The notes beneath the pieces were generated by a model. That model was not told where the DNA came from. It saw only the letters and a list, made by a program, of their open reading frames with translations, and made no database searches. Of a stretch of DNA of 37,458 nucleotides, positions 4,583 through 36,195 are shown piece by piece (position 1 is the stretch's first letter; the number at the start of each line of letters is the position of its first letter). This DNA comes from a virus (taxonomy: Duplodnaviria > Heunggongvirae > Uroviricota > Caudoviricetes), in IMG/VR virus record IMGVR_UViG_2541047873_000006; one strand, 5' to 3'. Made by a program: the position numbers and the translations under genes.

Positions 4583-4673
4583 GAAACCAGAACATGCACA
4601 CACAAAAAAACCGCTTGCCATGCCGCAATCAGTCAGGTTACATTTCCGCTGCACCTCATAAAACGGGTGCCGG

Positions 4674-4897
4674 GATTCTCAACCCGATACAGAGCAAAGC
4701 GCATAACCGCGCCAGCGGTTTTTTTGTGCGTACTGTATTGCCACGTCTTTTTCGCGTCAGAATTATGGCGGGGCGTACGGGGCCGACTTCGGTCGGGCCG
4801 GATTCTTTGCTCTCCGGTGTTGAGAACCCTGTACGTCTCGCCACCCCGAGATTCTCAACTCTGGATGGTGAGCTATTTCTATCACCGAGCAAAGAGG
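4674..4897 (+). other. Structured, repeat-containing leader/intergenic element (candidate cis-regulatory RNA or small RNA)
   Basis: Motif pair TTCTCAAC...GAGCAAAG at about 4676-4699 and 4853-4893, with its exact inverse CTTTGCTC...GTTGAGAA at about 4805-4826; a cUUCGg tetraloop hairpin at about 4779-4800; the third copy overlaps the AAAGAGG ribosome-binding site of the 70-aa ORF. Confidence 0.35.
4704..4727 (+). terminator. Candidate intrinsic terminator or attenuator inside the early operon
   Basis: AACCGC-GCCA-GCGGTT stem-loop followed by a run of seven T. Confidence 0.4.
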
Positions 4898-5207: not shown

Positions 5208-5597
5208 ATGATTGACGCTCATGACTTCACAAGATGGGTGCGCACACAGGACACCCGTCTGGCTCCCGTTCTTCAGGGATTATTTGATCTCTACATCCGT
5301 GGTCGTGACAACAGAGCACGCACCACAAAACCAGAGAATGCAGACACCCTTTATTTCACAGTAGACGACTGCTACCGCGTGGACTTCACACCACACGGGC
5401 TGGCGTTGCACTGCCTGACACCACACGGAGAATCACTGCTGGCGTATTACGACTCCCCGGCCTCCGTATTTGCGGCAATGCTGGCGCATCGCACTGCTGG
5501 CGGGTGTGCCTCGCTGAGTGAATACACCGCTGAATTTAACCGCCTTTCTGCCCTCTTCTCGCAGGAGTGGCAGCGCGTGACGGGATACCAGCCATGA
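5208..5597 (+). CDS. Hypothetical protein (129 aa) immediately upstream of A
   Basis: Track ORF; its TGA stop overlaps the ATG of gene A (ATGA). Confidence 0.55.
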   Translation: MIDAHDFTRWVRTQDTRLAPVLQGLFDLYIRGRDNRARTTKPENADTLYFTVDDCYRVDFTPHGLALHCLTPHGESLLAYYDSPASVFAAMLAHRTAGGCASLSEYTAEFNRLSALFSQEWQRVTGYQP

Positions 5598-8434
5598 GTG
5601 AGTTTGCATGGAGCTGGAATGAACCACGGCCAGCCATTGATCCGGCCAGATTTACGGAGCACAGGCAGGAAACTGAAACCGACCTGCAACGCGCCATCCG
5701 TTACTACCTTGAGGCGGACAAAAAGGCCCGGGAAGAACAGGAAGCGAAGGAGGAAGCCTTTTTCGCACAATCCGCCATGGGTAAAAAACTCATGGCATCC
5801 CTTGAGGAAGCCGGACAGCGTGAAAAGCTGGCACAGAGCATCATCAGTAAGCGCCGGGCAACAGAACAAGACCCGGTGGCCCGTGCCTTTGCCACACTGA
5901 AGGCGCTTCCCGTTTATCTGCGAGAACCTCTGAGCCGCCACCTCTCTTTCCTGCGCAAGAAGCAGGAAGCCGATCGTCAGAAAGGCAAAAAGAGCTGGCA
6001 GGCGGAACGCTATGCACGCGGAACCCTGCGCAAAATATTCGAACGTCTGGACCGCACCGACAGCCGCTGGCTGACACCGGGTTATCGCTCCCTTGCCGGA
6101 CGCGAACGCCTGGACGATTTGCTTTACCTGCCGCAGCTCAACAAACACCAGATACAGACGCTGGCCACCATGACGGCGGCGATGTTCAGCAGCACCTTCG
6201 AAAAACTCTGCGATGGCTTTGGCGCGACTGATGGCGAACTGACCATGGATGTAACGCTGAAGGCGTATCAGATGCTGGCCCGCATGGCGTTACACCTGCA
6301 CGCCATGCCTCCACATTATGACGCACTGACAACAGACAAAGACCGGAGGAACGAACCGGACACGGAGCTGCTGCCGGGCGCAATCCTTCGCCTGACCTGT
6401 GCGGAATGGTGGAAACGCAAACTGTGGCTGTTACGTTGCGAGTGGAGAGAAGAACAACTCCGCGCCGCCTGTCTGGTTTCCAGAAAAACATCACCCTATC
6501 TGAGCCAGGACGCGTTAAGCGAGTTTCGCGCACAGCGCGAGAAAACACGCGATTTCCTGAAAAGTTTTATGCTGGAAAACGAAGACGGGTTCACGATTGA
6601 TCTCGAAACAGTGTATTACGCGGGAGTAAGTAACCCGGTTCACCGTAAGGCAGAAATGATGGCCACCATGAAGGGGCTGGAACTTCTGGCCGAAGCCCGT
6701 GGCGACAAAGCGGTGTTTCTGACTGTCACCTGCCCGTCAAAATACCACGCCACAACAGAGAACGGTCATCCGAATCCCAAATGGAACGGGGCCACCATGC
6801 GCGACTCCAGCGATTACCTGGTTAACACGTTTTTTGCGGCGGTCCGCAAGAAACTGAACCGCGACGGCCTGCGCTGGTATGGCATCCGCACGGTGGAGCC
6901 TCACCATGACGGCACCGTGCACTGGCATATGATGGTCTTTGCTCATCCGGAAGAAATCGACACCATTGTGTCCCACACCCGCGATATTGCCATTCAGGAA
7001 GATCGTCACGAGCTGGGTGATGATATTACCCCACGCTTTAAGGCGGAGTACGTCGACGGCTCAAAAGGTACGCCAACCAGCTACATCGCCACCTACATCG
7101 GAAAGAACCTGGACAGCCGCGCCGTGGATGGCATCGACCCGAAAACGGGCAAGCCACGCGTTGACCACGAAACCGGAAAATCAATGGCCGAGAGCGTGGA
7201 ACGCGCCATCGGCTGGGCGCGCCTTCACCGTGTCCGCCAGTTCCAGTTCTTTGGTATCCCCTCCCGTCAGGTGTGGCGTGAACTCCGCCGCCTTGCCAGC
7301 CAGATGGCACGCAACCCGGAAGGCCCGCAACGGCTGAAGGATGACGCAATGGATGCGGTACTCGCTGCCGCTGATGCCGGATGTTTTGCCACCTACATAG
7401 AGAAACAGGGCGGCGTACTTGTTCCACGCAAAGACTACCTGATTCGCACCGCCTACGACCTCGCAGATGAGCTGAACGATTACGGCGAACAGAGTGTACA
7501 GATTTACGGGATCTGGTCGCCGCTCATCGGGGAATCCTCCCGTGTGTGCACGCATCCGGATAACTGGAAGCTGGTAAGACGTAAACCGGAAGTGGAAGAC
7601 AGCGCCCGCGAAAATGGTTTTGACCTTCAGGGCGGCCCTGCCGCCCCTTGGACTCGTGGCAATAACTGTCCCCGTGTACAGGAAACGGACAACAACGGGA
7701 CAGAACAGCCGGAAGAACGGCCAGCACCGTGGCCGCAGCTTCCTGACGGCATTGAAGTGAACGAATGGATGCGCTCACTGAAACGGCACGAACGCCGGGC
7801 GCTGATGCGTTCGCTTCGTGACAAACAGGCAAAAAACAGCAGTGATGAAATGCAGAGCTGGACACAGAGCCGCAAACAGCAGCGGCCTTTGCCTGATAAC
7901 CACGAATTACTCGCTAGAGAATGGCGGGAGTCTGCTGAATCTCTCGGCCTGCATATCGGTGAACAACAAATGCAGCACCTGTTACGGGGCGGCAGTCTGT
8001 ACGTTGACGGCAGCATCATTGCACCGCAGGGATTTGAAATTGTACGCAAACCGGATACCCGCCCGGACAGCCGAATCACGCAGCTCTGGCAACGCCTGAG
8101 CCGTAATCACGGCGTAAGCAGCACGGAGATCCGCCATAACCCGGTCGCCAGCTATCTGGAACAGCTGGGGGCATCAGACCCTGAAGCCGCCGCACGCCTG
8201 GCATCCACACTTCAGCAGGACCAGAACACCATGAAAACACCCGTTACCGTGCTTTCTGACATGCTGCGCGCCATCCGCGACGCAGAGCACGCACAGAGAA
8301 TCAGTGAAACCACTGAACGCGCCCGCCGCAAAGCAGACCTGCTGCGGGGTGGCCTGACCAGTGGAAACAAAAAACAGACAGAAACGGGATTCACAAATCC
8401 CGTAAATGAGCAAAAAACGCGCCGCGATATATGA
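5594..8434 (+). CDS. A: Rolling-circle replication initiator / replication endonuclease (P2 gpA-like), about 946 aa
   Basis: Track ORF 5567..8434 (GTG); ATG 5594 preferred because of the ATGA coupling. HUH motif in EPHHDGTVHWHMMVF and catalytic tyrosine motif in YIATYIGKN; the first 760 aa are collinear with the recalled P2 A protein. Confidence 0.9.
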   Translation: MSEFAWSWNEPRPAIDPARFTEHRQETETDLQRAIRYYLEADKKAREEQEAKEEAFFAQSAMGKKLMASLEEAGQREKLAQSIISKRRATEQDPVARAFATLKALPVYLREPLSRHLSFLRKKQEADRQKGKKSWQAERYARGTLRKIFERLDRTDSRWLTPGYRSLAGRERLDDLLYLPQLNKHQIQTLATMTAAMFSSTFEKLCDGFGATDGELTMDVTLKAYQMLARMALHLHAMPPHYDALTTDKDRRNEPDTELLPGAILRLTCAEWWKRKLWLLRCEWREEQLRAACLVSRKTSPYLSQDALSEFRAQREKTRDFLKSFMLENEDGFTIDLETVYYAGVSNPVHRKAEMMATMKGLELLAEARGDKAVFLTVTCPSKYHATTENGHPNPKWNGATMRDSSDYLVNTFFAAVRKKLNRDGLRWYGIRTVEPHHDGTVHWHMMVFAHPEEIDTIVSHTRDIAIQEDRHELGDDITPRFKAEYVDGSKGTPTSYIATYIGKNLDSRAVDGIDPKTGKPRVDHETGKSMAESVERAIGWARLHRVRQFQFFGIPSRQVWRELRRLASQMARNPEGPQRLKDDAMDAVLAAADAGCFATYIEKQGGVLVPRKDYLIRTAYDLADELNDYGEQSVQIYGIWSPLIGESSRVCTHPDNWKLVRRKPEVEDSARENGFDLQGGPAAPWTRGNNCPRVQETDNNGTEQPEERPAPWPQLPDGIEVNEWMRSLKRHERRALMRSLRDKQAKNSSDEMQSWTQSRKQQRPLPDNHELLAREWRESAESLGLHIGEQQMQHLLRGGSLYVDGSIIAPQGFEIVRKPDTRPDSRITQLWQRLSRNHGVSSTEIRHNPVASYLEQLGASDPEAAARLASTLQQDQNTMKTPVTVLSDMLRAIRDAEHAQRISETTERARRKADLLRGGLTSGNKKQTETGFTNPVNEQKTRRDI

Positions 8435-8480
8435 AGCGCGCACAAAACAGGCAAAAACGGGATTTCAGAATCCCGTAAAC
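8371..8480. repeat. Two about 38-bp direct repeats, each with an ACGGGATT-N4-AATCCCGT palindrome; candidate parC-like centromere / ParR operator
   Basis: Copies at about 8371-8408 (inside the last codons of A) and about 8443-8480 (30 bp upstream of parM) differ at about 5 positions; located where parC lies in R1-type parMRC loci. Confidence 0.4.
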
Positions 8481-8510
8481 GATTAATTAATCAACATAAG
8501 GAAAAGCGAC

Positions 8511-9470
8511 ATGAAAATTTGTATCGACGACGGCTCCACCAACATCAAGCTGGCATGGACTGAGAACGGCGAACGCCGCAACGCCATCAGCCCGAACAGC
8601 TTCAAGTCGGAATGGTCTGCGCCGTTCGGTGGCACGCAGCCCGCGAACTACATGCTTGATGGCGTGCGCTATGGTTTTGATCCGGTCAGCGATCGCTTTG
8701 TCCAGACGACCGACACGCAATACCAGTACAGCGATGTGAATGTCATTGCCATTCATCACGCGCTGGTCAAATCAGGCATCACGCCACAGGAGGTGGATGT
8801 GGTTGTCACCCTGCCACTGAGCGAGTATTTCGACACAAACGCACAGCCGGACATGGCCAACATCAACCGCAAAAAAGCGAACGTTATGCGCCCGGTGGAG
8901 TACCAGAACGGCGAAGCATTCACTATCCGTAACGTGCGGGTTATGCCTGAATCCATTCCGGCTGGCTTTAAGGCACTGGCTGACATGAGTCCGTTTGAAT
9001 CCCTGCTGATTGTGGATTTAGGCGGAACCACGCTGGATGTGGCAAAGGTTCAGGGGCAACTGGCAGGTATCAGCCAGGTGTTTTGCGATCCACACGTAGG
9101 CGTTTCCCTGATGGCCGATGCCGTGCTGTCGGTGATGGCCGCTAACGGTATGCGTACCAGTCACCACATCGCCAATACCATTATCGAACATCGCCATGAT
9201 GAAGCCTGGTTGCGCCAACACATCCACAATGACGCGCATTACGCCAGCCTGATGGCGGTTATTCGTGAAAAGGAAGAAACACTGAAACAACGCGTGATCC
9301 GCGCGCTGGCGGGTTTTTCGGGTTACGGACGGGTGATGGTTGTCGGTGGCGGGGCGGAGATTGTGGCACCCGCTATCCGCGAAGCCTGCGGAGTTAATGC
9401 GACTTTCATCGCGGACGGGGTGCCACAGTTTGCTCTGGTTAATGGGCTGTACGCAATGGACAAGGAGTAA
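8511..9470 (+). CDS. parM: Actin-like segregation ATPase ParM/StbA family, 319 aa
   Basis: MKICIDDGSTNIKLAW...ISPNSFK...YQYSDVNV...MPESIPAG...LIVDLGGTTLDV...VMVVGGGAE is collinear with the recalled plasmid R1 ParM (MLVFIDDGSTNIKLQW...); AAGGA Shine-Dalgarno. Confidence 0.9.
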   Translation: MKICIDDGSTNIKLAWTENGERRNAISPNSFKSEWSAPFGGTQPANYMLDGVRYGFDPVSDRFVQTTDTQYQYSDVNVIAIHHALVKSGITPQEVDVVVTLPLSEYFDTNAQPDMANINRKKANVMRPVEYQNGEAFTIRNVRVMPESIPAGFKALADMSPFESLLIVDLGGTTLDVAKVQGQLAGISQVFCDPHVGVSLMADAVLSVMAANGMRTSHHIANTIIEHRHDEAWLRQHIHNDAHYASLMAVIREKEETLKQRVIRALAGFSGYGRVMVVGGGAEIVAPAIREACGVNATFIADGVPQFALVNGLYAMDKE

Positions 9471-9474
9471 ACCA

Positions 9475-9789
9475 ATGACGACACCAACCAGACGGATAAG
9501 TTTCTATCTGAAGCCCGCCGCCGTCAATAGTGAACGGAAGGCGTGTAATTACCTCGACAGCCTGCCAGCCTCTGAACGCAGCCGCGCGCAACGCGCGGCC
9601 TTTCTGGCCGGGCTGGCACTCATAAAACGCGATCCTGCATTTGCCTATTGGTTGGCCGAATGGCCGGAAGAAGGAGCTGCGCCAGCAAAGAATAATATTC
9701 AGAGTAAATATGCCAGCACACCTGCCACCGGAAGCAATCACAGCACTAGCGAGATAAGAAAGAACATTCAGTCATTTTTCCCGGAGTGA
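9475..9789 (+). CDS. parR: ParR/StbB-like ribbon-helix-helix centromere-binding adaptor, 104 aa
   Basis: ATG 9475 with CAAGGAG 7 nt upstream, in frame with track ORF 9340..9789; ISFYLKPAAVNSERKACNYLDSLPASERSRAQRAAFLAGLAL matches the recalled R1 ParR N-terminus (IAFKLNPDVNQTDKIVCDTLDSIPQGERSRLNRAALTAGLAL). Confidence 0.8.
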   Translation: MTTPTRRISFYLKPAAVNSERKACNYLDSLPASERSRAQRAAFLAGLALIKRDPAFAYWLAEWPEEGAAPAKNNIQSKYASTPATGSNHSTSEIRKNIQSFFPE

Positions 9790-9808
9790 AAACAGGAGAG
9801 GTGCATCT

Positions 9809-10240
9809 ATGGCAACTATTCCCAAAAAATGGTTACAACGCAAAATCGCAGACCTTGAATCGTGTCGTGAAGACATCCCATTTGGCCTTGATGAAAACGA
9901 TCACAATATGTTAATCGCACTGAAAATCGCACTCACATCGCTGGAAGCGAAACCTGTTGCATGGACTGATGATGAGGAACTGCGTGATGTCAAGCAGTAT
10001 GGTTTCGGTGAGATATTTCAGTGTCCGCCAGATAAATACGCGGATCCGCGCCGTGTTATCCCTATGTATCAAGAGCCGCCAGCGCCAGCAGTACCAGATG
10101 GGCTGGTTAGAGCGGTGCGTTTCTATGAACAGGTTAAGCGTGAAAATCCGCCAGCCGAAACCGGAGCATGGAAAGACGCTGTTGACTGGGTGCTCAAAGA
10201 GGCCTGCCAAGTTGTAAACACTGGCATCAAAGGAGACTGA
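9809..10240 (+). CDS. Hypothetical protein (143 aa), first of three small cargo ORFs after parR
   Basis: Track ORF with AGGAGA Shine-Dalgarno; carries an IAL-x-SLEA-x-PVAW motif shared with the ORF at 10448..10708. Confidence 0.5.
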   Translation: MATIPKKWLQRKIADLESCREDIPFGLDENDHNMLIALKIALTSLEAKPVAWTDDEELRDVKQYGFGEIFQCPPDKYADPRRVIPMYQEPPAPAVPDGLVRAVRFYEQVKRENPPAETGAWKDAVDWVLKEACQVVNTGIKGD

Positions 10241-10241
10241 T

Positions 10242-10451
10242 ATGGCTATTGCCGCAAGTTACACCATGCATCTCTATTGTGATTGCCTCCAGTGTACAGA
10301 TGGCAAATATAAGTCGCCAGACTTCGGTGAGTATATAGGTACGTCATGGGCTGGCTGTGCAAAAGAGGCGCGCAAGGATGGCTGGCGAATAAGCAAAGAC
10401 AAAACGCGTGCTTTTGCGCCCGGGCATAAAGTTTTGAGGATTAACAAATGA
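10242..10451 (+). CDS. Hypothetical Cys-rich small protein (69 aa)
   Basis: Track ORF; Cys cluster CDCLQC plus a distal Cys suggests a possible metal-binding knuckle. Confidence 0.4.
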   Translation: MAIAASYTMHLYCDCLQCTDGKYKSPDFGEYIGTSWAGCAKEARKDGWRISKDKTRAFAPGHKVLRINK

Positions 10452-10708
10452 CCACTTTAACCGACAAAGAACTGATTAAAGAAATCAAAGAGCGCATAGG
10501 CAGCCTAGACGTGAGAGACAATATTGAACGCCGTGCTTATGAAATTGCTCTGGTATCGCTGGAAGCAGAGCCAGTAGCATGGATGCATGTAAATAACGGC
10601 ATCGGAATACCAGCAATAACAAGGAGTAAAGAGGTTGCAGAGAGTTGGTTATCAAAAGGCTGGTATGTCCAACCCTTACATCTAGCCCAGCCTGCATCAA
10701 AGCTATAG
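10448..10708 (+). CDS. Hypothetical protein (86 aa), paralogous motif with the 9809 ORF
   Basis: Track ORF with ATGA overlap; the shared motif is also visible in DNA (TCGCTGGAAGC in both genes). Confidence 0.5.
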   Translation: MTTLTDKELIKEIKERIGSLDVRDNIERRAYEIALVSLEAEPVAWMHVNNGIGIPAITRSKEVAESWLSKGWYVQPLHLAQPASKL

Positions 10709-10717
10709 AAATGAGCC

Positions 10718-10746
10718 AAAACGCCCTCTTCCAGGGCGTTTATTTC
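10718..10746 (+). terminator. Intrinsic terminator ending the A/parMR accessory operon
   Basis: AACGCCCT-CTTCC-AGGGCGTT stem-loop followed by TATTTC, 10 nt after the stop at 10708. Confidence 0.6.
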
Positions 10747-11199
10747 AATGCACAATAGTGCACAAATTTGCACAATTTTTTTGAACGACTTTTTGCCCTT
10801 CCGGCCCGCGGGGCGACTGGATCCGTCAAGGATCCGTGCGTGCACAAAAAAACGCGCTTTTTCTGCGCGCAGGTGACGGGGGAACAGCCCGCGTTTCAGG
10901 GGGTAAATAGCATTCCCTGAACGATGTCGCAGAGATACAACAGAATGGCTGTATTTCTCACGCTGAGCGTGAAAAAGACGTGAGGGCTTTTGATTTGATG
11001 GGGTGAAAGGTAAGGCCGTCAAAATCGCACTGAGACGGCGAGAACATGCAGCCAACGCGGTGGGATTGCGTAAGAGTCTGGCTGTCGATGATGGCAATAA
11101 GCAGGAAAGCGTCGTGAAATTATCTGATTGATACAGGAGCTGGAGAGTCGGGGCATAAATTTTTTATGCCCCGGCGAAGCAGCAGACAAGCGAAGCGCG
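10747..11199. other. Non-coding region adjacent to portal 3' end: candidate cos / packaging region
   Basis: Position corresponds to cos in a P2-type prophage map; GC-rich stretch GGTGACGGGGGAACAGCCC at about 10872-10890 loosely resembles the recalled P2 cohesive end; three TGCACAA copies at exact 10-bp phasing (10749, 10759, 10769). Confidence 0.3.
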
Positions 11200-12246
11200 T
11201 CAGGATGTGGGCTGGGTGTCCAGCAGTGCATAAGGGTTAAAGCGGATCACCTCTTCGCCAAGCCAGTCATTGATGTGCTTCATGGCCTCCATGACGGGCA
11301 TCAGTTCGTTAATTGCGTAAACCCGCGCGGCCTTCTCCACATCACCAAACGCACTTTTTTCGCCCGGCATCGCCCCCATCAGTTGCGGCGGAACGCGGTG
11401 CGCAGCCAGCACATCATCACGGGATGCCGCCTTGACATTCATGAACTCATCCTTTGCAGTGATCTGCTGGAACGGCAAAATTTGCACACCTTCTTTGCCC
11501 CCGTTGGGCGCATGAATGAGCACGTTTTTAAACGCACCACCACCACGTGCACCCTGTAACGTTTCTTTCAGGGAGTCCATGCTTTCGCGGTTTACCTGCG
11601 CTGCACCGATGTAGATGATGCACCCGGCGTGGGATCCGTTGTCGTAATACAGTTTTCTGAACATGTCCGCCGAATGAGACAGGCTGGCCGAGAGTAATGC
11701 GCCGAGATATTCCGGCATGCCGTAGATTTCCTGGTTAATATCCGGATTCATCAGGTGGCACACTTTGCCAGGGCGAAACTGGAACGCGTCCTTGCCATCC
11801 TGCACATACCACCATGATTCAAGATCGCTTCCGCGTCGCATGTATTTCGCCAGGGCGTGCCGTAATTTAAGCGGTTCACCGAGCATATTGCTTCGAAGCT
11901 CAAGGAATGCGTTACCGAACACAAACCAGTCCAGCGCCAGCGCCGAGAAATCCTGCCGGGAAAGCAGCGGGTGCGGAATATAGCAACCGAGCAATACATT
12001 GCGCTTAAAGTAAAGCGCAGACTGATGCCAGGACGTTTGCCGGGCAGCTCTTGCCAGACCGTACCAGTCCACCGGGGTTTCATACCACCGCCCGTTATCA
12101 GCACAGTACATATTGTCCAGCAGGTCATGCCCGGTCAGGCGATAAGGACCATCAAATGTGAATGCGCTGAGCGATGATTCTTTCCTGAGCGCATCAGCGA
12201 GATCAATGCGTGAACTCATGCGCACTTTTTTATTTTTTCTGCTCAT
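11200..12246 (-). CDS. Q: Portal protein (P2 gpQ-like), 348 aa
   Basis: Track ORF; size and position as P2 Q; ATG overlaps the TGA of upstream terminase P (ATGA coupling). Confidence 0.85.
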   Translation of the reverse strand: MSRKNKKVRMSSRIDLADALRKESSLSAFTFDGPYRLTGHDLLDNMYCADNGRWYETPVDWYGLARAARQTSWHQSALYFKRNVLLGCYIPHPLLSRQDFSALALDWFVFGNAFLELRSNMLGEPLKLRHALAKYMRRGSDLESWWYVQDGKDAFQFRPGKVCHLMNPDINQEIYGMPEYLGALLSASLSHSADMFRKLYYDNGSHAGCIIYIGAAQVNRESMDSLKETLQGARGGGAFKNVLIHAPNGGKEGVQILPFQQITAKDEFMNVKAASRDDVLAAHRVPPQLMGAMPGEKSAFGDVEKAARVYAINELMPVMEAMKHINDWLGEEVIRFNPYALLDTQPTS

Positions 12247-34563: not shown

Positions 34564-34704
34564 ATGTCGCAAAAATCGCTTACAGCCATCACGTTCTGCG
34601 TGACGGTAATCCTCATCATCTGGATGTTGCACGGTTCGCTGTGCGAAATACGGATGAGTTTCTGGGGAGCGGAGTTTGCGGCGTTCTTACAGTGTAAGCA
34701 GTAA
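34564..34704 (+). CDS. Hok/Gef-family type I toxin (46 aa)
   Basis: Not in the ORF track (under 60 aa); ATG 34564 with AAGGAG 8 nt upstream; N-terminal transmembrane helix then ...SLCEIR...EFAAFLQCKQ, matching the Hok family signature (LCEIR...EVAAF). Confidence 0.6.
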   Translation: MSQKSLTAITFCVTVILIIWMLHGSLCEIRMSFWGAEFAAFLQCKQ

Positions 34705-34964: not shown

Positions 34965-35297
34965 ATGGCATTAATCAAATGTCCTGAATGCCAGAAAGAG
35001 GTGAGCGATTCAGCATTGTATTGCCCTGCTTGCGGTAAACAAATAAAAAAACTTAAGCGTTCATTTTTTGGAAAGCTCATTAAGTGGATATTTATATTAT
35101 TTAATATTTTTATGATCTATACGCTTTTAGTTGGACTGGGAGGCACTAGTGAAATAATAAATAATGCTACATCCGATGCCGAAAAAGCCGGTGCAGTTAT
35201 TGGTACAGGCTTAGGTTTAATTACCATTGGAAGTTTATGGGTTATTGGCGATATCATTATCGGAATTTTAGTATTTCTTACTAAACCAAAAGGATAA
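34965..35297 (+). CDS. Zinc-ribbon membrane protein (110 aa), AT-rich cargo
   Basis: Track ORF with AAAGGAGG Shine-Dalgarno; CPEC-x12-CPAC ribbon then two hydrophobic helices. Confidence 0.6.
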   Translation: MALIKCPECQKEVSDSALYCPACGKQIKKLKRSFFGKLIKWIFILFNIFMIYTLLVGLGGTSEIINNATSDAEKAGAVIGTGLGLITIGSLWVIGDIIIGILVFLTKPKG

Positions 35298-35301
35298 CAA
35301 A

Positions 35302-36195
35302 ATGAAAAATATAATTTTTTCTATAGGTGCATCATTTATATCAATTAGTGTACTGCCTGTTCACGCAGCAACTGAACATAATAACTTCAATGCAGTACTC
35401 CAGTGCCGAGCAATAGAAAATAATAAAGACAGACTTTCTTGTTACGATAAGTCAATACAACCGACTCGAACGAAAGTTGCTGAAAAATTCGAAAGCAGAG
35501 ATCAATGCCCTGATGAGAAAGATGATGACAGACGTTTATCTTGTTATGATCGTTTTTTTTCTCCAACATTTACTCCATCTGTAAACTCAAAATCTAAAAC
35601 GGAAAAGCCAGTAACAACAGAGGCTCAGCAACCAAATCTTTCTGAGATATCTAAATGCCGAGCAGAAAATGATAAAGAAGCCAGACTAAACTGCTACGAT
35701 AAACTATTCCCACAGGATAAAGCTGTTCAAGCTGAATCAAAATTAGAGAAAGCCACAGATGTAGGAAAATGGCACACATCCATTACTACATCGCCAATTG
35801 ATGATTCGAAAAATGTAATTTTATCGTTAGAAAGTGATGATTATATCAGAACTCCATTTGGAGAAGCGGTTACTCCCACTCTGTTTATAGCTTGCCGAGA
35901 AAAGAAAACCGAAGTATTTCTTAGTTGGGATGTATATTTAGGCCTTGAACAAACCAGCATGCTTTATCGTCTTGATAAACAGAAAGCAGTTGAGCGAAAC
36001 TGGCTAGTATCTACAGATACAAAGGCTGTTTTTTATAAAGGTAATGACATTGATTTCATCCGAAAACTAGCCAACTCAAACAAAATGTATACAAAAATAA
36101 CTCCTTATAATGAGAGCCCTGTAAGTGCAACTTTCAATTTAAACGGCCTGTCAAACGCGCTAAAACCACTTCAAGCTGCTTGTAACTGGAAATAG
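35302..36195 (+). CDS. Secreted protein with three Cys-pair repeats (297 aa), AT-rich cargo
   Basis: Track ORF; signal-peptide-like N-terminus; three repeats of C-x(7-9)-RL-x-CYD-[KR]; starts 5 nt after the previous stop. Confidence 0.65.
   Translation: MKNIIFSIGASFISISVLPVHAATEHNNFNAVLQCRAIENNKDRLSCYDKSIQPTRTKVAEKFESRDQCPDEKDDDRRLSCYDRFFSPTFTPSVNSKSKTEKPVTTEAQQPNLSEISKCRAENDKEARLNCYDKLFPQDKAVQAESKLEKATDVGKWHTSITTSPIDDSKNVILSLESDDYIRTPFGEAVTPTLFIACREKKTEVFLSWDVYLGLEQTSMLYRLDKQKAVERNWLVSTDTKAVFYKGNDIDFIRKLANSNKMYTKITPYNESPVSATFNLNGLSNALKPLQAACNWK

Follow-up and report, generated by a model that had tools for sequence, protein, structure and literature searches.

We identified a candidate plasmid-type segregation cassette in a 37,458-nucleotide stretch of phage DNA, IMG/VR record IMGVR_UViG_2541047873_000006 (hereafter the window). 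The cassette consists of a parM gene directly followed by a parR gene, and the pair is preceded by two palindromic repeats (Table 1). It is located between gene A and the portal gene Q, where an original prediction made from the DNA letters alone had placed it. That prediction also described the surroundings as a P2-like prophage, and the gene content agrees: integrase, C-type repressor, Cox and gene A are followed by portal, terminase, P2-type capsid and tail genes, and ogr. The prophage is P88-like and belongs to the genus Xuanwuvirus of the family Peduoviridae. The stretches of the window searched between positions 5916 and 9800 are 100% identical to a prophage in the chromosome of E. coli EcPF14, which is inserted between flk and pdxB.

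The identity of the two genes is not new, as GenBank and RefSeq already name them 'plasmid segregation protein ParM' and 'plasmid partitioning/stability family protein', and PHROGs labels both as 'partition protein' (phrog_691 for ParM and phrog_2515 for ParR). What is new here is their linkage to a particular type of gene A, the constraint acting on them, their conserved context in other genera, and the paired cis sites upstream of parM.

Table 1. Features of the parMR region, with positions in the window
Feature	Position	Strand	Basis
Gene A, rolling-circle replication endonuclease, 946 aa in RefSeq	5594..8434	+	Pfam Phage_GPA (1.9e-131), RefSeq annotation
Repeat 1 with dyad site 1, ACGGGATTCACAAATCCCGT (also written ACGGGATTcacaAATCCCGT, 8384-8403); candidate distal half of parC/ParR operator	8368..8409		Repeat search, octamer count
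Repeat 2 with dyad site 2, ACGGGATTTCAGAATCCCGT (also written ACGGGATTtcagAATCCCGT, 8457-8476); candidate proximal half of parC/ParR operator	8441..8482		Repeat search, octamer count
parM, predicted actin-fold segregation ATPase, 319 aa	8511..9470	+	PDB 1mwk, Pfam, phrog_691
parR, predicted ParR/StbB-family adaptor, 104 aa	9475..9789	+	Pfam PF10784, PDB 2jd3, phrog_2515
Three small ORFs (143, 69 and 86 aa), variable part of the A-Q interval	9809..10708	+	ORF map, relatives compared
Convergent terminator-like hairpins ending the + strand unit (A-parM-parR-ORFs) and the - strand portal/terminase unit	10758..10870		Terminator scan
Portal gene (Q homologue)	11200..12246	-	Gene map, RefSeq annotation

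Residues 2-316 of the parM product align with the full length of ParM from plasmid R1 (PDB 1mwk, E 8.9e-93), with an identity of approximately 48% as estimated from this alignment. Two Pfam domains, StbA_N (1.8e-82) and the ParM C-terminal domain (2.6e-68), are matched far above their curated cut-offs, and these searches thus bear out the proposed homology to ParM. The ATPase motifs are identical or nearly identical to those of R1 ParM: DDGSTN within the phosphate-1 segment IDDGSTNIKL, MPESIPAG, the phosphate-2 segment DLGGTTLD, and VGGGAE. The roles we take these motifs to have (phosphate 1, catalytic Glu, phosphate 2 and adenosine loop, including the catalytic residues) are those described in the literature on R1 ParM. 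Judged from its sequence, the protein belongs to the ParM/StbA family of actin-fold ATPases, with its nucleotide-binding motifs intact.

The parR gene is separated from parM by a gap of 4 nt, its ATG beginning at the fifth nucleotide past the last base of the parM stop codon. This agrees with the anticipated ParR homologue 5 nt downstream, and the product matches the ParR/StbB family in Pfam (PF10784, Plasmid_stab_B) at 2.6e-26. It also matches the N-terminal domain of ParR/StbB from pB171 (PDB 2jd3), with an E-value of 0.004 as a single sequence and 0.0024 as a profile. The protein consists of an N-terminal strand (RRISFYLKP), a set of helices, a hypervariable linker, and a conserved C-terminal helix (KNIxxFFPE). 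In an AlphaFold2 model of the monomer, an unstructured strand region is followed by helices at residues 19-29, 32-52 and 90-101. This layout is compatible with the ribbon-helix-helix DNA-binding fold predicted for ParR. The confidence of the model is low (pLDDT 61.8), and a Foldseek comparison of it with the PDB returned no meaningful match. Low confidence is expected for a monomer, and is uninformative, because proteins of the ParR type are obligate intertwined dimers. The C-terminal motif, [KQ]N[AI]xx[LF]FP, is common to the phage ParRs of five genera and aligns with KKNAMKLIN at the C-terminus of R1 ParR, a region that in R1 binds ParM.

We examined constraint on the pair in 87 loci: the window, 80 contigs from IMG/VR, and three each of species-representative genomes and database records. 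ParM is intact and 319 aa long in all 87, and the mean pairwise dN/dS of parM is 0.052 among the 72 distinct sequences. The gene is under strong purifying selection. The Escherichia phage copies of ParM are 98–99% identical, and full-length phage ParM forms four clusters at 90% identity in a large protein database. These values bear on the possibility that the cassette has no function and is simply a piece of plasmid that was acquired once and has been retained as a passenger. The truncated ParM variants present in databases (described below) would fit such a history. However, a passenger would not be expected to show this degree of constraint, to keep its gene order in five genera down to 54% ParM identity, or to retain conserved paired cis sites, and we regard this explanation as essentially excluded.

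Linkage to gene A and distribution

The cassette is tightly associated with one type of gene A. In a collection of 50,697 phage records, P88-type gene A occurs in 14, and the same 14 records carry the cassette. We also surveyed 5,426 complete E. coli genomes at a main threshold of at least 80% coverage, and found P88-type gene A in 1,322 and the cassette in 1,277 (1,304 genomes have any match to the cassette). The parMR pair is a fixed partner of P88-type gene A and behaves as a core part of the replication module rather than as a variable accessory gene.

This gene A is unusual in length, its product having 946–955 aa compared with 761 aa for P2 A. The Phage_GPA domain stops at about residue 518, and the remaining C-terminal extension of about 430 aa has no Pfam match. 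Further upstream on the + strand of the early region there are Rfam matches above the gathering score for isrK (4651-4725, 62.8 bits) and for the C4 antisense RNA (4761-4848, 78.5 bits).

The parM gene begins 76 nt 3' of gene A on the same strand. By consensus scan, neither a + strand terminator nor a sigma-70-like promoter is found between A and parM in the window or in the related Plesiomonas and Serratia loci, and no such promoter is found in the whole stretch from 8100 to 11300 of the window. By eye, a weak promoter candidate overlaps dyad site 2. The pair is most likely transcribed with the early operon that runs from Cox to A. The original prediction regarded the cassette as occupying the accessory position that holds tin and old in P2. 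The shared map interval holds, but accessory status does not: parMR is co-directional with A and nearly one-to-one with P88-type gene A, whereas P2 tin and old lie on the opposite strand with their own promoter. A P2-type lysogenic-conversion gene has its own promoter, is transcribed independently of the early operon and is variably present among close relatives, and parMR, with no consensus promoter and a presence of 14 out of 14, does not fit this description.

The variable part of the interval lies further downstream. It runs from codon 18 of parR through the three small ORFs to the convergent terminators at approximately 10758-10870, and it differs between relatives. None of the three small ORFs has a match in PADLOC or Pfam. 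The 143-aa (9809-10240) and 86-aa (10448-10708) ORFs have N-terminal PHROG families 660, 5117, 60 and 3323 in common and are therefore paralogous.

The survey of related prophages that had been suggested at the outset extends the distribution beyond Escherichia. After the Escherichia group (91–99% identity), the closest relatives of the phage ParM are from Hafnia (62%), Plesiomonas (62%), Serratia (58–59%) and Enterobacter (54%). At all four of these loci gene A is followed, after at most two small ORFs, by parM and parR and then by a variable segment and the portal and terminase genes, and the Plesiomonas contig additionally carries integrase, repressor and Cox. A scan of species-representative genomes for ParM returned three near-identical loci only; the distant relatives came from the protein database and from inspection of the contigs that encode them. 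Those relatives examined with 53% identity or less adjoin Rep3, ParAB or Tra genes, a context typical of plasmids and conjugative elements. A quick neighbour-joining tree, calculated without support values, sets the prophage ParMs apart from the plasmid ParMs.

Several observations accompany these relatives. In Serratia, the region 3' of parR (7390-8084 of its contig) contains a strong promoter-like site and a hicAB toxin-antitoxin pair, and in Enterobacter a KAP NTPase gene lies 3' of parR on the opposite strand (7411-8757 of its contig). The variable hotspot therefore begins right behind parR in these genera as well. A 226-kb contig labelled 'Vagococcus sp. WN89Y' (NZ_JBQPOM010000071.1), which would be from a Firmicute genus, encodes a ParM 98% identical to that of the E. 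coli phages and is probably the result of contamination or a mislabelled assembly.

The distribution is also relevant to whether the phage might persist for many generations as a low-copy circular episome, with parMRC (perhaps together with hok/mok) as its maintenance system, which would make it an integrative phage able to live as a phage-plasmid. Facultative lysogeny of this kind is suggested by one PLSDB record from a cat isolate of E. coli, NZ_CP148288.1 (pZ1323PEC0009-2), a circle of 34,461 bp that amounts to an entire P88-like phage, its integrase, parM, parR and hok included. Outside the Xuanwuvirus records, moreover, the only phage in the 50,697-record collection with a ParM homologue at an E-value below 1e-8 is the phage-plasmid D6, and the window itself carries a toxin gene of the Hok/Gef family. 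However, 1,442 of the 1,444 places at which the cassette occurs in complete E. coli genomes are chromosomal, integrase, C and Cox are kept in all members examined, and rolling-circle protein A is present with no theta-type plasmid replicon visible. The lone circular record may be an excised replicative form caught by the assembly, and hok/mok is also common in integrated Stx phages. Phage-plasmids of the P1, N15 or D6 type have a plasmid replicon, persist as prophages outside the chromosome and usually do not integrate; what we find is a prophage integrated at flk/pdxB with integrase, C and Cox, together with one circular record of 34.5 kb. We consider an episomal lifestyle rather unlikely.

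The Hok/Gef-family gene (34564-34704, + strand) lies just past ogr and is a second stability module in the style of plasmid R1; the same protein is encoded by pZ1323PEC0009-2. Annotations of mok/hok are also found in P88, P884B11, Chuche and phage 500465-2, and phiSM and PhiR44_2 match that region. Between hok and flk (34965-36195) the prophage end carries as cargo a zinc-ribbon protein and a protein annotated as type VI secretion-associated TagO. The paper on phiSM lists a T6SS VasI-family protein as ORF1.

Paired dyads upstream of parM and variation of ParR

A repeat search identified two direct repeats of 42 nt upstream of parM that are 81% identical and 73 bp apart from start to start. Each contains one 20-bp dyad of the form ACGGGATT-N4-AATCCCGT, and the second dyad ends 35 nt ahead of the parM ATG. 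The two palindromic repeats were correctly recognized in the original prediction, but the unit is longer than the 38 bp given there, and repeat 1 lies inside the 3' end of gene A, overlapping the last codons of its reading frame (stop codon at 8432-8434). The exact octamer ACGGGATT occurs four times on both strands of the window, where about one occurrence is expected, and all four are dyad arms. No further dyad site was found in the window with exact or loosened patterns.

The dyads are conserved in position and span. The 18-bp YGGG...CCCR dyads are located at -126..-109 and -53..-36 relative to the parM ATG in the window, at -129..-112 and -56..-39 in Hafnia, and at -132..-115 and -60..-43 in Plesiomonas. 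The spacing is 72–73 bp in all three, and the inner sequence differs. Serratia and Enterobacter have at the same place one long inverted repeat, GGGAAC...ATAGAAAAAT / ATTTTTCT...GTTCCC. Within 85 E. coli-type loci the GGGAT/ATCC cores are kept, and variation is mostly confined to the outermost bases and the 4-nt spacer.

The E. coli dyads fold as RNA hairpins (-11 kcal/mol, z -3.9), and on the minus strand they resemble terminators with a T-run following. We tried and rejected the reading of the dyads as an RNA hairpin or terminator: in Hafnia and Plesiomonas the hairpins are not kept (z -0.4 to -2.2) while the GGG...CCC span and the 72–73-bp spacing are, and there is no T-run on the + strand. 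With the symmetric span kept and the hairpin not, the conserved element is a site in duplex DNA, as expected for a dimeric DNA-binding protein.

Similarly placed elements are found in the plasmid relatives. In R1/pC15-1a, two clusters of 11-bp AAACCCA iterons lie 94 bp apart. The corresponding distance is 72 bp in a Pantoea plasmid, where each of the two clusters contains three TTTCTCT iterons, and 72–73 bp in another element. These clusters sit in the same place as the phage dyads. The comparison thus supports the suggestion that the repeats are parC-like. From its sequence and layout, the phage element resembles a bipartite parC in reduced form: each cluster has two inverted half-sites, which gives four candidate sites for ParR dimers compared with ten in R1.

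A rival reading takes the dyads as a transcriptional operator only, with ParR acting mainly as an autorepressor or regulator and the locus having no centromere activity in the phage. Two dyads near a translation start resemble a classical operator of ribbon-helix-helix proteins (Arc, Mnt or CopG type), there are four half-sites only, and the second site ends close to the ATG. However, retention of a full-length ParM with intact ATPase motifs and a dN/dS near 0.05 is hard to explain without a DNA cargo, and the predicted ParM-binding motif at the C-terminus of ParR is conserved across genera. In addition, R1 parC is operator and centromere at once, so the two roles are compatible. A purely regulatory function is in our judgement unlikely.

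ParR is far more variable than ParM. There is essentially no variation in residues 1-17, where the strand predicted to read the DNA (RRISFYLKP) is located. The helical body exists in allele classes that share only about 52% identity, the linker (approximately residues 65-95) is hypervariable, and the C-terminal NIxxxFPE is kept. In a large protein database Escherichia ParR forms dozens of 90% clusters ranging from 97% down to 48% identity. A mosaic boundary is located within parR near position 9527, as codons 1-17 are identical in P88-like phages and divergence begins at codon 18. The nearest plasmid ParRs are about 43% identical to the phage protein. There is no association between ParR allele class and dyad sequence in the 85 E. 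coli-type loci, and therefore no sign of co-varying specificity.

Variation on this scale, beside a nearly uniform ParM, could reflect conflict. The prophage ParR and parC might destabilize incoming plasmids or superinfecting relatives through partition incompatibility, or serve in defence, as a form of lysogenic conversion or exclusion, and in P2 the A-Q interval does host the exclusion genes tin and old. However, no ParR allele class departs from the others in its DNA-reading strand or in its dyad cores, so diversification leaves the apparent specificity unchanged, and cross-reaction with plasmids is unlikely given their distant ParRs and different iterons. No PADLOC defence model matches ParM, ParR or the three downstream ORFs at E ≤0.01. 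The cassette is also fixed rather than variable, and its orientation and missing promoter are unlike those of tin and old. An exclusion role appears quite improbable.

Proposed role

The original prediction offered an episomal lifestyle, stabilization of the excised form and exclusion as possible roles. Based on the features above, we propose that the cassette is a genuine type II (ParMRC-family) segregation module that acts on the extrachromosomal circle, and that it belongs with the replication and early genes in P88-like phages and related temperate phages of the P2 family. We assign this reading a probability of roughly 0.55. ParR dimers would bind the four GGGAT/ATCCC half-sites of the two dyads through the N-terminal ribbon-helix-helix strand. 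The 73-bp spacing corresponds to approximately seven helical turns, so both dyads would lie on the same face of the DNA. The bound ParR could form a small partition complex, which would probably also autoregulate the operon, and the conserved C-terminal helix would capture the ends of ATP-ParM filaments, whose growth would push parC-bearing DNA molecules apart.

The substrate of such a system would be the circular phage genome that protein A replicates once the phage has infected a cell or been excised, rather than the integrated prophage. P2-type replication yields monomeric circles as the packaging substrate, which would be a plasmid-like cargo. With transcription from the early operon, parMR would be made while the circle exists. 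Replicating circles might be spread out and positioned so that they are replicated and packaged efficiently, comparable to the role of AlpAC in prophage CGP3. Alternatively or in addition, while the cell still divides and neither integration nor lysis has occurred, the element might be passed to both daughters, comparable to the role of srpMRC in the SXT/R391 elements. A role on the extrachromosomal circle is the most economical reading because of these two studied precedents, which are compared with the phage cassette below.

Several points weigh against a segregation function on the circle. A lytic phage that kills its cell has no obvious need of segregation, and the benefit is therefore conjectural. 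The ParR of the E. coli phages lacks an internal segment of about 19 aa, a helix, which aligns to TTFSDIVNILRSLFP of R1 ParR and is kept in R1 and in the prophage ParRs of Hafnia, Plesiomonas, Serratia and Enterobacter. The candidate centromere comprises only four half-sites, inverted rather than direct and without a consensus promoter between them; compared with the ten iterons of R1, this may be too few for a ring-like or helical ParR scaffold to form. Early transcription is read solely from missing consensus signals. The databases also contain clusters of truncated ParM, one of 229 aa with a frameshifted tail (649 members) and one of 188 aa (555 members; seen on a 5.1-Mb contig), so loss or decay of parM is tolerated in some, heavily sequenced, lysogen lineages. 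Finally, a search of the literature on ParM in connection with P2-like phages, Peduoviridae, Xuanwuvirus, P88 and prophages found passing annotation mentions and no functional study of the cassette.

A wider proposal is more speculative, and we advance it only tentatively. The cassettes of Enterobacterales P2-family phages might form a phage-specific ParMRC lineage that co-evolved with the rolling-circle gene A, with a minimal centromere of four half-sites that organizes or partitions monomeric circles; an integrative virus would then have an actin-like spindle at its service. In this case ParR, with a difference of about 50% in its body from one allele to another beside a conserved ParM and conserved dyads, would have diversified rapidly because prophages in the same cell, or their satellites, are in conflict or avoid cross-talk.

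The annotation itself is ordinary, but the system is widespread and strongly constrained, with a reduced centromere-like element and a fast-evolving adaptor. Partition systems are regarded as plasmid equipment, and the pair described here belongs to the conserved core genes of a phage lineage that integrates. About one in four complete E. coli genomes carries this lineage, strains of O104:H4, O157:H7 and O145 among them, and P2-like prophages of at least four further genera have a homologous cassette at the equivalent position. In practice, a chromosomal 'plasmid segregation protein ParM' should be read as a marker of a P2-like prophage rather than as evidence of a plasmid. Should the target of the cassette prove to be the circle formed on infection or excision, the need of integrated elements for active positioning of their DNA in a brief extrachromosomal stage, known from integrative conjugative elements and CGP3, would extend to temperate myoviruses. 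The cassette would then also offer a minimal ParR-parC complex of natural origin with which to ask how few adaptor dimers can engage a ParM filament.

Comparison with known systems

Close counterparts are ParMRC (parA/stb) of plasmid R1 and the related pB171 locus, which have the same gene order, parC-parM-parR. R1 ParR belongs to the same Pfam family as the phage protein, with a comparable N-terminal strand (RRTIAFKLNP in R1) and a similar C-terminal motif. The cis sites of R1 are likewise bipartite, located upstream of parM, and built on a G/C-triplet core (AAACCCA in R1, GGGAT/ATCCC in the phage). However, R1 parC consists of two sets of five direct 11-bp iterons, whereas the phage has two inverted-repeat dyads, and R1 ParR is 117 aa long compared with 104 aa for the phage ParR, which lacks the internal helix. 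The carriers also differ, a plasmid in the case of R1 and pB171 and an integrative P2-family myovirus here, in which the first site lies inside the coding end of gene A.

The phage-plasmid D6 (P1-like, 91 kb) has a ParM homologue with 47.8% identity, and its record annotates a plasmid stability protein of the StbA type. The D6 prophage is maintained as a plasmid and hence needs partition, whereas the phage described here is integrative. In P2 the interval from gene A to cos and Q is occupied by orf91, tin and old. The orf91 gene is on the same strand as A, as is parMR, while tin and old are transcribed from the opposite strand, with mapped start sites of their own; they are exclusion genes and are expressed in lysogens.

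Two systems of integrated elements are precedents for the role proposed here. The srpMRC locus of SXT/R391 integrative conjugative elements stabilizes the excised form, which replicates by a rolling circle, and is expressed only with int (PMC4489591). It resembles the phage cassette in being a partition locus of the type II-like kind, in its strict conservation within the element family, and in its carrier, which is normally integrated and uses rolling-circle replication when excised (PMC4489591). Action on the transient excised circle alone has been demonstrated for srpMRC, whereas for the phage cassette it is a proposal. SrpM and SrpR are distant from R1 ParM and ParR, SrpR having no recognizable ParR domain, while both phage proteins clearly belong to these families. 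The srpMR genes share a SetCD-dependent transcript with int, and the phage cassette follows replication gene A (PMC4489591 for srpMRC).

The AlpC/AlpA/alpS system of the Corynebacterium glutamicum prophage CGP3 tethers circular phage DNA to actin-like filaments and is needed for efficient replication (PMC4446434). As in the phage cassette, an integrated prophage encodes an actin-like ATPase and a co-transcribed DNA-binding adaptor. AlpA binds sites in its own upstream region and links the circular phage DNA to the filaments, and both AlpA and AlpC are induced early (PMC4446434, PMC5539076). CGP3 differs in host phylum, in phage type and in gene order (alpA-alpC), and the role of AlpAC in replication efficiency has been demonstrated experimentally.

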